From Methanobacterium sp. (lineage in GTDB: Archaea; Methanobacteriota; Methanobacteria; Methanobacteriales; Methanobacteriaceae): a stretch of DNA of 11,401 bases. The notes below the pieces were generated by a model. It was not told where the DNA came from. It saw only the letters and a list, made by a program, of their open reading frames with translations, and made no database searches. How positions within the stretch are numbered: the first letter of the stretch is position 1; every line of letters begins with the position of its first letter. The position numbers and the translations under genes are program-made. Shown piece after piece: positions 1-9,766 of the stretch. The stretch is from positions 1,859 to 13,259 of the forward strand of contig PMWA01000047.1 in NCBI GenBank assembly GCA_003166335.1, given 5' to 3'.

Positions 1-1791
1 TATTCAATTTATTTTACCATTACCACTATATCAACTGTGGGATTTGGTGATATTGTTCCAATAACTCCGTTACAAAAAATTTTTGTTATTAGTTTAATAA
101 TTTTTGGTGTTGGTTTATTGGCTTATGCATTTATTTTGGTAATAACGGTGACTATAATGGCATGGGAAGAAGTAACATCTGGCGTTAGACAGAAAAGAAA
201 GATAGAAGGAACTAATAATCATTTTGTATTATGTGGCTATGGACGGGTGGGTAGTGCTGTTCACGAAGATTTATTAAAAAGGAATCAAACCGCAATAATA
301 ATAGAAAGCAATAGAAGTATTATTGAAAAGGAACTATGGGAGAATCCAGAAGTCCTAGCCCTACATGGTGATGCCACCGATGAAAGCATAATGAGAGACG
401 CTGGAATAAAAAGAGCCAGAGCAGTTATAATAACTACTGGCGACGATGTGGATAATCTATTTATAACTTTAACCGCCAGAGAAATGCGCTCTGACATATG
501 GATAGTCACCAGAGCAAGTAAAAAAGTAAATATAAAAAGACTTTATCGTTCGGGAGCGGACAAAGTCATATCTCCTGAGACTAGTGGAGCAGAGGATATT
601 TATTTTGCAGCTATTCAACCAACACTTATTAAGGTCACTGAAATGCATTGGGTAGATGATATGAAAAGGGAAGCTGATATCATCTTTAAACATGGATGTA
701 CTTTGGAGAGTATAGAATATCATTTACCTGAACTTAAAGGGCCTTTAGTTAGAGAAATAGAAAATTCCAATGAAGATCAGTTTAATAAATTTTTAGATAG
801 TTTAGAGCGTGAACCTTCTCGTAAAAAATCTTTAGAACGCATGTATGAGTCAATGAGTGGTATTCATTCCCATTGGATTTCAGGACCCAGTAAAGAAGCA
901 TTGGATGCTGTGGTGAATGAACTTAAACAAGAAGGATTTTTATTAGGAGTAAATCTTAATGAGGAAGAAATACAAGAGGCTGCTCGTAAATACGGACGAC
1001 TAGTTGAAGTAGTTATTAAACCTGAGATAAAAGTTACTGAAACTCATGGTGTGGCAGATATACGTGATGAATCCGAAATAATCTTAAAACATGGCGGTAC
1101 ATTAGAGGATATTGAATATTACTTACCCGGATTCAATGAACCTTTGCTTAGGAAAATTGGGTTGTCTGAATCTGAAGAAATGGAGAGATTTTTAACTCGT
1201 CTGGAAGAGGATGACAAGAGAATGGAGTCTCTTGAAAGACTATATAATTTATCAGGTGCTGGTGTTCATTCACACAGGATTTCAGCTCCTGACACTGACA
1301 TTCTTGGTAAAATAGAACAGGAATTAAACAATAAGGGTTTTCTTTTAGGTGTTAACCTGACTCATGAAGAGATTATAAAAAGAATTAAGGAATATGGAAG
1401 GGTTAGTGAAATGTTTTTAAGGCACGAACCGAGTCAGACTGATGATAAAATGATTGTGATAAAAACAGGAGGACGTATACTGGATTCAAAATATTATCTT
1501 CCCGGAGTAAGGCAAGTAGTAACTAGGCAGCTCTATTTAAGGAATGATGAAGATCTTAAAAATTGTGAAAGAGAATATCAGAAGCCAGAGTCTCAAAGAT
1601 CTCTTAAAGCCCTTTCTGGAATATCAAGAAATATACATTCACACACTGTATCTGCAGGAAATTTCAAAACTATAAAGAAGATAGAAGAAGCCTTAAATAA
1701 ATCAGGGATGCTTATAGGAGTTAATCTTGAGGAGGATGAAATTTGGAATATCATTGAAAGAGAGACTACAGGAAAAATCTGTATTGAATAA
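1..1791 (+). CDS. Potassium channel (MthK-like 2TM pore + RCK/TrkA-N domain) with three C-terminal tandem 3H-like domains; 5'-truncated by the window edge
   Basis: Frame 1 is open from base 1 ([20 protein letters not shown]), giving the pore helix and selectivity filter TVGFGD, so the track's GTG start at 37 is internal. The inner TM helix follows, then a Rossmann motif [22 protein letters not shown] and GADKVISPE typical of RCK/TrkA-N. From about nt 620 there are three ~125-135 aa repeats, each with an N-terminal His, an HSH motif and G(F/M)L(L/I)GVNL. Stop TAA at 1789-1791. Confidence 0.92.
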
Positions 1792-1837: not shown

Positions 1838-2731
<894 letters not shown>

Positions 2732-2985: not shown

Positions 2986-3996
2986 TCAAATTTTGCCTGA
3001 TAATTTATCAAGCACTGCTGATCCATAATAAGGTATCAATGCAACACCAATAAATGAAGTCAACCAGAATGATATTAACCTTTCAATAATTGTGGCAGCA
3101 GCACTTATTGATGGAGGTACACCAGATATAGAAAATATAATAATCATCACTCCATCCACAGCTCCTACTCCTCCCGGCAGCAGTGGTATTAAGGCAATTA
3201 ACGCGGATATGACAAATACAGATGCAATTACTAATAAAGAGACGTGAGTATTGAATGCTAAAAAGATTATATAAAGTCTTATTATCTCAATAAACCAAAT
3301 TAAAAAGGATAGTGGGAGAGCGTATAATAATACGTTCCTGCTTTTAATTACAGATCGAATGCTATTTTGAAATCCATGTAAAGCATCCAGAGCGTTTTTT
3401 TCTAGTTTACTGTGTTCTTTTTTTGAAAATCGCTTAATAATAGTTACTATCCATTTAGTAACCTTCTCGCCCATTTTCTGGTTGATAGACATATAAAATC
3501 CAATTATAAACAATACCACCAGTATCACTAATGAGATTGTTAAAGTTAAAATCAGGAAAAAGGACAATTTCAAATATAAAACCGCAGAAATAATAGTTAT
3601 TATAGCTAAAAGAAACAATGGAAATGTGTCTAAACCTCTATCCGCTATCACTGAAGCAAAAGAAGTCTCTGTAGGGGATTGAGAAAATTTACTTAGAATG
3701 TAGGCTCTGACAGGTTCTCCTCCGCCCGCGGGAGTTATATTGTTAATACCCTTACCCACTAGAGTCATAGGTAAAAGAGGCATTTTTTTAATTGATATTC
3801 CAACAGCATGAATATTTATCGACCATCTAACAGTCCAGAGTAGGTATAATATAAATTGTATTGCTAATGCCAGTAGTACGTACAATGGATTGGCCATTGC
3901 AATGGCTTCTTCAATTTTAACAGGACCTATGAATAGAACTAGAAGAGCTAGAATTCCTATTCCAATTGCTAAGAAGATCAAAGTGTGGTATCTCAT
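2986..3996 (-). CDS. UPF0104 / lysylphosphatidylglycerol synthase TM-domain (AglD2-like flippase-domain) membrane protein
   Basis: 336 aa multi-TM protein with family motifs RW, NNITPAGGGEPVRAYIL, SVIADRGLD, PLLPGGVGAVD and ERLISFWL. Confidence 0.88.
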   Translation of the reverse strand: MRYHTLIFLAIGIGILALLVLFIGPVKIEEAIAMANPLYVLLALAIQFILYLLWTVRWSINIHAVGISIKKMPLLPMTLVGKGINNITPAGGGEPVRAYILSKFSQSPTETSFASVIADRGLDTFPLFLLAIITIISAVLYLKLSFFLILTLTISLVILVVLFIIGFYMSINQKMGEKVTKWIVTIIKRFSKKEHSKLEKNALDALHGFQNSIRSVIKSRNVLLYALPLSFLIWFIEIIRLYIIFLAFNTHVSLLVIASVFVISALIALIPLLPGGVGAVDGVMIIIFSISGVPPSISAAATIIERLISFWLTSFIGVALIPYYGSAVLDKLSGKI

Positions 3997-4102
3997 TAAA
4001 ATCCACTAAAAGCTTTTTTTAATTCATTAATTTATAAAATTGAATATAAAAGTTTGTTTAGAATCTAAATTATGTTTTTCTAACTAACATATTATGATGA
4101 TG

Positions 4103-4600
4103 CTAAAGAAATATAACTTGATAATTCAAATCGTCAGAATCCATTAGAACTACTGTTTCATTACCGGATAAGTATCCGCATGTTTCTCCAGGGTTTATAA
4201 CGAGAGTTTCTCCATCTATAATTTCCACTTTGTGAGTATGACCTCTCACTAATACTTCATATTTTCCACTGCAAGATATTGCTTCCACAATAGTCTGATT
4301 AGAGCCATGCATAATTGCCATTAGTTTATTTCCTAACTCAAATTCTTTAAAATCCTCCAGATAACATAACTGTTTATAAGCCCTTCGCAAACCATGCCTT
4401 TCTCCATCATTATTTCCGAAAACTGCTAAAAATTGAGAGTCAAGATTTTGGAATATCTCAGCTGTGAAAGGAGAAATCAAATCCCCAGCATGCACTACTA
4501 AATCAACCTTTTCCTGGTTAAAAAACATTACTGCCTTTTTTATTGACTCTAAATTATCGTGGCTATCAGACATTATACCAATAATAATTTCATCCACCAC
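4103..4600 (-). CDS. YfcE/MJ0936-type metallophosphoesterase (calcineurin-like)
   Basis: 165 aa, GTG start (exact start uncertain). Motifs SDSHDN, HAGD, GNND, MHG, GHTH and NPGE are in canonical order. Confidence 0.92.
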
Positions 4601-4844
4601 TCAGATATTTTTAAGTGATATTAATATTATATTTTAATTAAATTAAAATTAACGTAAAGAAAAACTTATTTTGAAAAAAATATATTTAAATGACTATTGT
4701 TTCTAAAAGTTAGTATTATAATTTTCTGAAGGATTATTTAAAAAATATAAGCACACACTAAACTGAATTTCATAAAGCCTCCTAATGATTTAGAATTTGA
4801 TTAAATTTTTTGAAGATGAACTGTAAATCAGAAATCATATCAAC

Positions 4845-4878
4845 TTAAAGTTAGTTAGAAATTAAAGGTAGTTAGAAA
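4845..4878. repeat. Tandem 17-bp direct repeat
   Basis: TTAAAGTTAGTTAGAAA (4845-4861) followed directly by TTAAAGGTAGTTAGAAA (4862-4878); 1 mismatch. Confidence 0.8.
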
Positions 4879-4882
4879 TTTG

Positions 4883-4938
4883 AACTAGACGTGATGATAT
4901 CATTTAAAAGGCCTTTTATCTTACTGAACCTAGTTTTT
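4883..4938 (+). ncRNA. Candidate box C/D (kink-turn) small RNA
   Basis: Terminal stem AACTAG (4883-4888)/CTAGTT (4930-4935), consensus box C GTGATGA (4891-4897), box D CTGA (4924-4927), then a T-tract. No C'/D' boxes and only 26 nt between the boxes. Confidence 0.35.
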
Positions 4939-5122
4939 ACGATAAAGTTAAATTTAAAATTTCAAACTCTATAAAACGAAATCTTAAGTTTGTAAAGTAT
5001 TAAAATAACGAAAATTTTAAAAAATCTAAATTTATATGTTTCTGGAACATTTGTATTTCTTTAGTTTTTTTACCCATTTTTTGGATTGAGAGATTTATAC
5101 TCCTCTTACAGATTAAGCATTC

Positions 5123-5186
5123 AAAATTTTAACTAAACTTTTAGTCAAAATTTTATTTGAAAACTCTCCTTTTTTAGTTAAAATTT
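5123..5186. repeat. Inverted repeat with a third half-site upstream of the SPFH gene (possible operator)
   Basis: AAAATTTTAACTAAA (5123-5137), CT, TTTAGTCAAAATTTT (5140-5154), 1 mismatch; a further TTTAGTTAAAATTT at 5173-5186. Confidence 0.5.
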
Positions 5187-5242
5187 AATATGAGTTCCGT
5201 TAATATTATTAGTCAATGATAATATAATTAGGAGGTTGAAAA

Positions 5243-6025
5243 ATGGTAGATTATGTAACTCTTACCTTCATTGGTATTATAATATTAATTATTTTAGGTC
5301 TTTCCATACGTATAGTAAATCAATACGAGAGAGGAGTAGTTTTTAGATTGGGAAAGGTTATCGGAATCAAGGAACCGGGTCTTCGTCTCATCATCCCCCT
5401 CGTGGACAGAATGGTTAAACCATCATTAAGAATAGTTACCATGCCCATACCCGCTCAAAAAATCATAACTCAGGATAACGTGACCATTGACGTGGCTGCA
5501 GTAGCTTACTTCAAAGTGACTGATGCTTATAAAGCTGTAGTTGAAATTGAAAACTATAATCGGGCGGTTAACCAGATTGCACAGACCACATTGAGAAGTG
5601 TTGTAGGAAAATATGCCCTAGATGAAATATTATCAGAAACGCAGAAATTAAACCAGAGCATGCAGGAAATCATAGATACTCACAGTGAACCGTGGGGTAT
5701 AAAAGTCACCACCGTAGAAATAAAGGATATTAAACTACCTGACAGTATGCAGAGAGCTATCGCACTTCAAGCAGAAGCTGAAAGGGAGAAAAGAGCTAAA
5801 ATCATATCGGCTGAAGGTGAATATCTGGCTGCAGGTAAATTAGGAGATGCAGCAGATATTATAACAGAACATCCAGTAGCTCTCCAATTACGTATAATGC
5901 AAGTTCTAAGCAACATTGCTGCAGAAAAGAATTCAACCATAGTATTCCCAGCCCAGTTACTCAACAGCATAAGGGATATTAAAGACTTTATGACATCAGA
6001 GTTAGGTGAAACAGAGAAAAAATAA
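5243..6025 (+). CDS. SPFH/band-7 (stomatin/slipin family) membrane protein
   Basis: 260 aa. N-terminal TM anchor, [60 protein letters not shown] and ALQLR. Strong SD GGAGGT 6 nt before the ATG. Confidence 0.96.
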
Positions 6026-6049
6026 AACAGTGTTTACTAACTTTCTCTA

Positions 6050-6099
6050 TTTTTTTTTAAATTTTTTAATTATTCTTTCCTTGTGAAATTAAAAAAATT
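6050..6099. terminator. Probable bidirectional oligo-T terminator between convergent genes
   Basis: T9 tract at 6050-6058 after the SPFH stop and an A7 tract at 6091-6097 (T-tract on the minus strand) after the MBL gene stop. Confidence 0.5.
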
Positions 6100-6111
6100 C
6101 ATATATTAAAT

Positions 6112-6729
6112 TTAAAATTCCATGGCAACTTCATAAGCCATTTTCACGTGTTTTGAACCATCTGAAGTACAGGGCCCATGTCCCGGAAGTAAGTATTCAA
6201 TTTCAAGTTCACTCAATCTTTTTAAGGATTTTTTCATTGAATCCATATTTCCCCCCAAATCAATCCTTCCGAAACCACCATCTGCAAAAACAGTGTCCCC
6301 TGATATGAGAGTTTCTCCATTATAAAGACAGATCCCCCCTACTGTGTGTCCCGGAGTGTGTAAAACTTCAAAATCATGGATTTTATCGCCTTCATGAAGT
6401 TTAACTTCCACTTTCATGTTGCATAATGATTTTCCAAACATGTCTGCAGCAGTAGTTTTTTCATCACCTTCTTCCAATGCTTTAGCATCTTCTTGGTGCA
6501 TTGCCACCTTCAAATCGAGATGAACATTGCCTCCAATGTGATCGTAATGATTGTGGGTGTTCACTATGAGTGAGAGATTATTTGGATCGTACTCTGCATT
6601 TTTCAAAGAGTTGAGTACGTAATTCATGTTTTGTCCTGTTCCGGTATCCACTATGACATCTTCAAAGACGTAAATATTAGAATCAAAGCCTTTTCCTTCA
6701 ATCATTATAATATCCTTGATCTTTCGCAA
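6112..6729 (-). CDS. Metallo-beta-lactamase-fold hydrolase (glyoxalase II-like)
   Basis: 205 aa. DTG, THNHYDHIGG (HxHxDH), HTPGHT, SGD and PGHG motifs. TTG start preceded by SD GGTGAT at 5 nt. Confidence 0.93.
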   Translation of the reverse strand: MRKIKDIIMIEGKGFDSNIYVFEDVIVDTGTGQNMNYVLNSLKNAEYDPNNLSLIVNTHNHYDHIGGNVHLDLKVAMHQEDAKALEEGDEKTTAADMFGKSLCNMKVEVKLHEGDKIHDFEVLHTPGHTVGGICLYNGETLISGDTVFADGGFGRIDLGGNMDSMKKSLKRLSELEIEYLLPGHGPCTSDGSKHVKMAYEVAMEF

Positions 6730-6780: not shown

Positions 6781-6924
<144 letters not shown>

Positions 6925-9409: not shown

Positions 9410-9766
9410 TTAATTCAAACTAATTTCTTTTAATTTAGTTATTTCGATTTCATGATTAACTTTAAGTTCATTTAATTGTTCTTTATAGGAGTTTTCCGCG
9501 CTTTCTAATTTTTGTTTTAATTCTTTAACTCTTTTAGCATAATTAGTATATAATTCTATTTTTTTTCTTAATTCTGATATTATATTAATATCGATCACTT
9601 CTGGGAAGTCAGAACATCGCAAAATAATTACTGTATCACCACAATTAAATCCATAAGCTTCATCTAATTTAACGTAATAATGTTCATTTTCTTTAATGTT
9701 TTGATTATCTTTCACCATATAACATTTTACCCCGGTTTTAGGGATTTTATCGCTCAAATCTTCCAT
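9410..9766 (-). CDS. Hypothetical protein: small beta-rich N-terminal domain plus C-terminal coiled coil
   Basis: 118 aa ORF in AT-rich DNA with a strong SD GGAGGT 7 nt upstream; K/E/L heptad pattern in the C-terminal half. Confidence 0.75.
   Translation of the reverse strand: MEDLSDKIPKTGVKCYMVKDNQNIKENEHYYVKLDEAYGFNCGDTVIILRCSDFPEVIDINIISELRKKIELYTNYAKRVKELKQKLESAENSYKEQLNELKVNHEIEITKLKEISLN

Follow-up and report, generated by a model that had tools for sequence, protein, structure and literature searches.

A 2TM potassium channel of Methanobacteria with three 3H domains after the RCK N-lobe and a conserved, probable internal start signal

The 11,401-nt stretch of Methanobacterium DNA analysed here (the window) begins inside a gene for a two-transmembrane (2TM) K+ channel in which the N-lobe of an RCK domain is followed by three tandem 3H domains. 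This 2TM-RCK-3Hx3 channel is a real variant of the MthK kind, conserved, catalogued and unstudied, and by its sequence it falls outside MthK proper, since the C-lobe and the Ca2+ site are absent. The explanation that we favour, with some reservation, is that an internal start at Met103 supplies soluble subunits to an octameric ring, which may sense an adenine nucleotide together with a metal-held carboxylate. The internal start signal, a split-gene case and the case against niacin as the ligand are new here; the joining of a TrkA module to 3H is not, having been in print by 2008.

Architecture of the channel gene

Window positions 1..1791 form one open frame of 596 aa that is open at its 5′ side. 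The features of the gene and its convergent neighbour are as follows.

1..1791, + strand: 3′ 596 codons of the 646-aa 2TM-RCK-3Hx3 K+ channel gene (frame and Pfam)
34..51, + strand: K+ selectivity filter TVGFGD
67..156, + strand: inner helix TM2, up to Met103
147..159, + strand: putative internal start, with SD-like GGTGA at 147-151, a 5-nt spacer and the ATG of Met103 at 157-159 (P0003 numbering)
223..612, + strand: RCK N-lobe, with TrkA_N at 223-576, GYGRVG at 235-252, Glu152, Pro-Glu243 and helix alphaF
643..942, + strand: 3H repeat 1, with His at 646, Glu at 670, Arg at 751 and HSH at 865-873
1039..1344, + strand: 3H repeat 2, with His at 1045, Glu at 1069, Arg at 1150 and HSH at 1267-1275
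1417..1713, + strand: 3H repeat 3, with a divergent pocket, His at 1423, Asp-Lys at 1444-1449, Arg at 1525 and HSH at 1636-1644
1838..2731, − strand: ftr, formylmethanofuran:H4MPT formyltransferase (Pfam)

Upstream of the window, across a two-N gap that immediately precedes window position 1 on the contig, are TM1 and the real start of the gene (GTG after GGTGA, G000:C40:1656). Together with this start and TM1, the 5′ side of the gap holds a slightly different 53-nt near-duplicate of the pore helix, so that two pore-helix copies flank the gap in the assembly, as might be expected if the gene were broken or a two-pore chimera. That reading is scarcely credible, because contigs from three of the four runs searched (X1, X14 and X15; X17 stops short of the gap position) join 1806 to 1860 and skip the 53 nt, and the gene thus bridged is 1941 nt or 646 aa long, the length of P0003, an intact protein 99% identical to the window gene product. 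The gap is an assembly artefact, and the contigs of X1, X14 and X15 rule out a two-pore or pseudogene identity; the locus is one single-pore gene. The runs containing the gene are peat and permafrost metagenomes, and both the adjoining ftr and the names given to close homologues point to a Methanobacterium-like methanogen. A fraction of 0.41-0.87 of the gene's words occurs in six RNA runs, and the channel coding region is covered by RNA contigs from X15; lacking a silent-stretch control, neither observation was counted as evidence of expression.

The first-pass annotation, made from the letters alone, had described a channel with a TVGFGD filter, an RCK N-lobe with an intact GYGRVG motif and three 3H domains in place of a TrkA-C lobe, and had proposed Pfam searches by which to check it. 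These returned every expected domain in the 596-aa frame: Ion_trans_2 at aa 2-49 (E 5.9e-11), TrkA_N at aa 75-192 (E 6.4e-32) and 3H (PF02829) in three stretches (E 3.5e-60, 200.7 bits against a cut-off of 25). TrkA_C gave no match in the channel at E≤0.01, while other genes of this genome do match it. The T, G, G and D of the filter are fixed in 133/133 full-length homologues, with F or Y at the middle position. The AlphaFold model (pLDDT 82, pTM 0.48) shows TM1, a pore helix, a long TM2 and a Rossmann lobe ending in alphaF, with the first 3H strand directly after it; alphaG and the C-lobe are absent in Pfam and model alike. Foldseek with the whole chain ranked MthK and GsuK first. The arrangement of the domains is not fixed by AlphaFold (pTM 0.48 and 0.51), which counts against our favoured explanation.

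The RCK residues G129, G131, R132, G134 and E152, making up a GxGxxG...D/E motif, are present in 95/95 sequences. In a pairwise alignment the MthK residues D184, E210 and E212, which we take to be the Ca2+ ligands in keeping with the titles of mutant structures, fall on T, R and S of the channel. The closest solved N-lobe is GsuK RCK2 (E 8.9e-22), in which the same motif is the nucleotide motif and ADP and NAD+ bind and activate (PMC3510474, in excerpt); GsuK RCK1 lacks alphaG and still forms a ring (same excerpt). Since the GxGxxG and Glu are invariant and the three acidic positions of MthK are replaced, the channel's RCK probably binds an adenine nucleotide, as the annotation had suggested from the motif, and gating by Ca2+ of the MthK type is not expected.

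Around the channel, ftr is the convergent neighbour in 57/64 three-repeat loci, and nnr, encoding a bifunctional NAD(P)H-hydrate epimerase/dehydratase (L001:55-1542, − strand, upstream of the window), is divergent from the channel in 56/64. Genes for LPG-synthase-like, metallophosphoesterase, band-7 and metallo-beta-lactamase-fold proteins follow ftr (window 2986-6729), and several relatives have trkH/trkA no more than about 8 kb away from the channel (L026, L027, L030-L033). Elsewhere in the window, a 144-nt Rfam tRNA match at 6781-6924 (− strand), with a CCA anticodon and an intron carrying C/D-box-like motifs, was missed by ARAGORN and is likely the usual archaeal pre-tRNA-Trp, and a 118-aa ORF at 9410-9766 (− strand), with a coiled-coil-like C-terminus in an AT-rich stretch, had no Pfam match.

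A probable internal start signal where TM2 ends

Two invariant residues, Val100 and Met103, stand at the end of TM2, and the SD-like GGTG(A/G) and Met103 are fixed in 68/68 single-gene copies. All 67 multi-repeat ORFs compared, from 64 genomes of four families that are kin and not independent, read NNG GTG RNN NNN ATG at this place (75 ORFs, minus four from two split genomes and four one-3H ORFs); L072, missed by the pattern, also carries the signal. The first codon is ACG in 37, TCG in 18, ATG in 8 and GCG in 4, so that the amino acid may be Thr, Ser, Met or Ala and the codon always ends in G, whereas the share of ACG, TCG and GCG within their codon families is 3-6% in these genes, and that of GTG 21%. 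The two signal columns are the only fixed ones among 150 four-fold columns (next 0.77, median 0.45). Pairing with the anti-SD, for which we assumed the sequence because the 16S 3′ end was not found in the window genome (G000), averages −7.7 kcal/mol at Met103 against −1.4 at 614 other in-frame ATGs. Across G000, a GGTG(A/G) precedes 6.8% of the 962 first ATGs at a distance of 4-6 nt, compared with 0.8% of the 8559 internal ones, and the gene's own start also uses GGTGA.

Two genomes of one genus, representing a single event, have this arrangement divided between two genes. In G088 and G045 the full-length copy reads TCT GTG, with the G of the SD lost and a pairing energy of −3.5, and 26 or 59 nt downstream follows a pore-less tandem copy that starts at the equivalent of Met103 and keeps the SD (−6.1 and −7.2). 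The pore-less copy has a dN/dS of 0.21 over 540 codons, indicating purifying selection. The tandem pairs lie at L065:3734-7299 (G088) and in L071 (G045), the full-length gene without internal SD first and the pore-less RCK-3Hx3 gene second; the two copies group with different relatives in the repeat tree, so one was perhaps acquired or is an old paralogue.

In MthK the octameric ring consists of four attached and four soluble RCKs, the latter made from an internal Met107 (PMC9440719 and PMC2920069, in excerpt). By its conserved signal the channel gene very probably has translation starting at Met103 as well, yielding a soluble 544-aa RCK-3Hx3 subunit, and by analogy with MthK we expect, with good though lesser confidence, that an octameric ring forms. 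The fixed nucleotides could instead mark an RNA element or a protein-binding site. SD strength is also an unreliable guide, since in 14 orthologues of MthK the known internal start shows no more than a weak SD. The one-3H forms described below lack Met103; most show AGGAG-like letters before an ATG nearer the RCK (the start codon is TTG in three of 29), and seem to use that other Met. Because the internal start is conserved, a ring would hold eight RCK-3Hx3 units and 24 3H sites, and the figure of 12 sites per tetramer in the first-pass annotation is likely too low by half.

The 3H repeats, their distribution and candidate ligands

Each repeat alone passed the PF02829 cut-off of 25 (69.5, 76.2 and 67.2 bits), and the annotation's positions for the first His codons (646, 1045 and 1423) and the HSH motifs (865, 1267 and 1636) were exact. 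Foldseek placed three NiaR structures (7cv0, 1j5y and 9ebr) at the top for the repeats, with ACT domains weak behind, and the three-repeat model matched only these three at E≤0.001 (2.6e-6 to 1.6e-5). The whole-chain rmsd against NiaR is high because the alignments ran into the HTH; the secondary structure predicted by AlphaFold agrees with the C-domain fold of NiaR. The repeats thus have the 3H fold, as first proposed. The nine His are invariant in 133/133 full-length homologues, and a His/Glu/His/His site, corresponding to His83, Glu91, His150 and His152 of BhNiaR, is intact in 68/68 of repeat 1 and 68/68 of repeat 2. In repeat 3 the Glu at His+8 gives way to Asp-Lys at His+7/+8 and the pocket, with Ser/Cys, is more polar; this repeat likely binds something different or is structural.

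In BhNiaR, Glu91, His150 and His152 hold zinc, and the niacin carboxylate displaces the zinc's water and bonds to His83, with the niacin ring among M88, L92, V105, L119, F130, M134, L141, L142 and Y112′; TmNiaR binds Ni through all three His and Glu, and NiaR 3H domains dimerise via the beta5 strand (all from excerpts of PMC7713382). Judged by fold and alignment, the His of the channel should likewise converge on a metal, and its 3H sites in all likelihood hold one, in line with the metal sites originally suggested. The pocket was compared with that of 63 NiaR-like proteins. Repeats 1 and 2 retain most of the hydrophobic positions of NiaR, including 88, 119, 130 and 134, whereas L92 has become small, V107 is Tyr or His, H109 (61/63 NiaR-like) is mostly Leu in methanogen repeats and Y112 (63/63) is Phe, Val or Ile. 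At the position of Ala117, where the NiaR-like proteins most often have G (26), A (22), V (7) or E (2), all 253 methanogen 3H domains grouped, kinase domains included, have Arg; Lys replaces this Arg in repeat 2 of 1/95 sequences. From strand alternation, residues 107 and 117 (Arg) are predicted to face the pocket.

A near full-length match to the channel was found in 28/41 genomes searched (53-100% identity). In a phylum sample of 151 genomes, 74 had four or more 3H matches, 29 had two and 48 at most one. Where the DNA was examined, four matches stand for three channel repeats and one kinase, two for a one-3H channel and a kinase, six for an added two-repeat paralogue and seven for an added pore-less tandem copy; for the remaining genomes we infer the same meaning. 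The architecture is, by sequence comparison, conserved in Methanobacteria, with one-3H forms in Methanobrevibacter and Methanopyrus. Of fourteen control genomes, Methanocaldococcus, Methanosarcina, Haloferax and Sulfolobus among them, only those of Bacillus subtilis and Thermotoga maritima had 3H. A scan of genome contigs gave back no locus besides the query's own. Searched with a profile, 1.84 billion representatives yielded 225 matches, and 20 proteins scanned among the best 150 of these (P0003 and cDPG synthetase not included) were all channels, kinases, NiaR-like proteins or fragments; the ESM Atlas gave no usable match. In the repeat tree (123 columns, 103 rows, no Methanopyrus rows), in which we relied only on the two starred branches, repeat 2 and repeat 3 have a branch apiece, and both branches take in G039, a genome from another order, which makes the triplication old; the tree does not separate an ancestral from a reduced one-3H form in Methanobrevibacter.

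The channel is dispensable, a point against our favoured explanation: 48/151 genomes carry no more than one 3H match, and in two relatives the pore region is broken. The breaks lie in or just after the filter codons (L031:5150-5420 and L032:5520-5760), one being the loss of a base and the other a short duplication that brings in a stop; from Met103 onwards both genes are intact, and the breaks reflect either sequencing error or loss of the pore. A non-syntenic second paralogue with two 3H repeats, the second without Glu and last His, occurs at L066:3989-5542, L067:3510-5063 and in L105; its neighbours in L066, judged by eye, include CBS/NRAMP-like and metallo-beta-lactamase-like ORFs. Two one-3H homologues, P0162 and P0168 (the latter standing for the Methanopyrus cluster), have degenerate filters, TGVGCAN and SGYG, and by these are possibly not K+-selective.

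The first-pass annotation had proposed a niacin-like ligand, by which the repeats would couple NAD status to K+ flux. Nicotinate is the sole 3H ligand on record, the metal ligands and hydrophobic positions 88, 119, 130 and 134 are kept in repeats 1 and 2, and the NAD(P)HX-repair gene nnr is a frequent neighbour; nnr is, however, transcribed divergently and ftr is as conserved a neighbour, so that with the two-repeat paralogues sitting elsewhere the gene neighbourhood gave no ligand clue. L92, V107, H109, Y112 and A117 of NiaR are all changed, and genomes showing the three-repeat pattern almost lack nicotinate salvage: of those with at least four 3H matches, 1/74 has a match to NAPRTase (PF04095), a fragment within a frame of 75 aa, compared with 21/29 with two and 25/48 with at most one, a split that follows lineage and amounts to one or few events. 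We consider sensing of nicotinate or a niacin-like pyridine improbable, and the channel's 3H ligand, judged by its pocket, is probably not nicotinate. Methanogens depend heavily on Ni and Fe, and sites that sense a transition metal (Ni, Zn, Fe or Co) or protons with no organic ligand would agree with the nine invariant His and with a threefold repetition suited to cooperative sensing. TmNiaR shows that three His and Glu can bind Ni (PMC7713382, in excerpt), but the first His of BhNiaR contacts the organic ligand and not zinc (same excerpt), and the hydrophobic pocket and Arg conserved beside the site would be superfluous in a metal-only sensor, making this reading unlikely.

It is also quite unlikely that the adenine nucleotide at the RCK gates alone, with 3H as a metal-stabilised structural replacement of the C-lobe or a dock for a partner such as the kinase-3H protein. 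NiaR 3H domains do dimerise via beta5 (PMC7713382, in excerpt), and one-, two- and three-repeat forms exist, the two-repeat paralogues with a degenerate second site; against this, the site residues have been invariant in all three repeats since before the G039 split, beyond the needs of a scaffold. The pocket would best suit a metabolite that binds the metal by a carboxylate and has a second anionic group. The lead candidate, named tentatively, would be a phosphoglycerate (2-PG, 2,3-DPG or cDPG), because the other 3H host resembles 2-phosphoglycerate kinase and cDPG occurs in the same lineages. Reports of cDPG cover Methanothermobacter, Methanobrevibacter, Methanothermus and Methanopyrus (PMC1224877, in excerpt), and these lineages are the ones with these 3H proteins; cDPG synthetase is nearly universal (140/151 genomes, with or without the channel), and its co-occurrence is therefore not discriminating.

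In the explanation that we favour, four membrane and four soluble subunits would assemble into an MthK-like eight-membered gating ring, each RCK of which would bind an adenine nucleotide, while up to 24 3H sites would each bind a metal-held carboxylate metabolite. Following NiaR, the carboxylate of the ligand would take the place of water at the metal and form a hydrogen bond with the first His, and the ligand's second anionic group would be held by the Arg typical of the methanogen domains. The 3H domains would fill the role that the C-lobe has in MthK (Ca2+) and KtrC (c-di-AMP), and we lean towards ligand binding at the 3H sites changing gating. As a speculation with little more than an outside chance, a private 3H sub-family of Methanobacteria and Methanopyri may sense phosphoglycerates on both a 2PGK-like kinase and a K+ channel. 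If so, a ring of 24 sites, with its response graded at the RCK by energy charge, would adjust the flux of K+ to the pool of the cell's main organic anion, for which K+ is the counter-ion; a K+ channel would then be gated via a metal cofactor by a central-carbon osmolyte, and repeat 3 would read a second ligand.

Relation to known systems

Prokaryotes sense ligands in K+ transport most commonly through RCK rings, whose known C-lobe inputs are Ca2+ and c-di-AMP. In this channel an unrelated sensor fold has replaced the C-lobe and become threefold, within a lineage with an old K+ and cDPG physiology. Beginning at the internal start, a soluble construct of 544 aa could be purified and screened for ligands without membranes; the same start predicts the ring stoichiometry, and the split-gene genomes show such a start turning into a separate gene. 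If the ligand were identified, the 3H domain would gain its second known function, and the PRK12338 kinase would become easier to interpret. The TrkA-module 3H proteins already catalogued have the same fusion (RefSeq "3H domain-containing protein"; Methanopyrus kandleri AAM02762), and 3H in TrkA-module proteins and 2-phosphoglycerate kinase is mentioned in an excerpt of PMC2330245, citing Anantharaman 2001. Databases name the homologues "3H domain-containing protein" or "voltage-gated potassium channel". The literature searched held nothing on the channel's function, ligand or internal start, with subscription papers and supplements as places where they may be mentioned, in agreement with the original view of the architecture as catalogued, apparently without functional characterisation.

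The PRK12338 family is the best NCBIfam match of each channel repeat, and its 3H shares the Tyr/Pro/Arg/HSH signature of the repeats; unlike the channel, it is a 2-phosphoglycerate-kinase-like P-loop enzyme with a single C-terminal 3H. It is the only other 3H protein in G000 and is present in most genomes sampled. Its 3H site is partly degenerate in some genomes, and in the window genome the kinase no longer has the first His or the Glu; its gene lies at L004:1459-2469 (G000:C102) beside ZPR1-like zinc-finger and histone-fold-like ORFs (by eye). NiaR/YrxA/TM1602 (1J5Y, 7CV0/7CV2, 9EBR) shares the 3H fold and the His/Glu/His/His site, whereas the channel has no N-terminal HTH_11, has three tandem 3H domains and has changed pocket and dimer-interface residues; with HTH absent and pocket changed, it falls outside the NiaR repressors.

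Among RCK systems, KtrA has a motif and Pro-Glu that align with the channel, while the KtrC C-terminal subdomain in which c-di-AMP is bound (bioRxiv 2023.04.24.538052, in excerpt) is missing here. GsuK, a channel activated by ADP/NAD+ and inhibited by Ca2+, provides the closest solved N-lobe and the GxGxxG...D/E motif, but with two RCKs in each chain it does not depend on a soluble copy. MthK, whose orthologues are separate genes in relatives (L136-L149), has the same 2TM pore and RCK N-lobe and is the top sequence and fold match of the channel's N-terminal half; it also has the internal start for a soluble ring subunit (PMC9440719, in excerpt), a likeness seen here at the level of sequence. 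In contrast to MthK, the channel has three 3H domains instead of alphaG and the C-lobe, an intact GxGxxG with T/R/S at the D184/E210/E212 positions, and an internal start 21 residues before the RCK His where that of MthK lies 10 residues before it.
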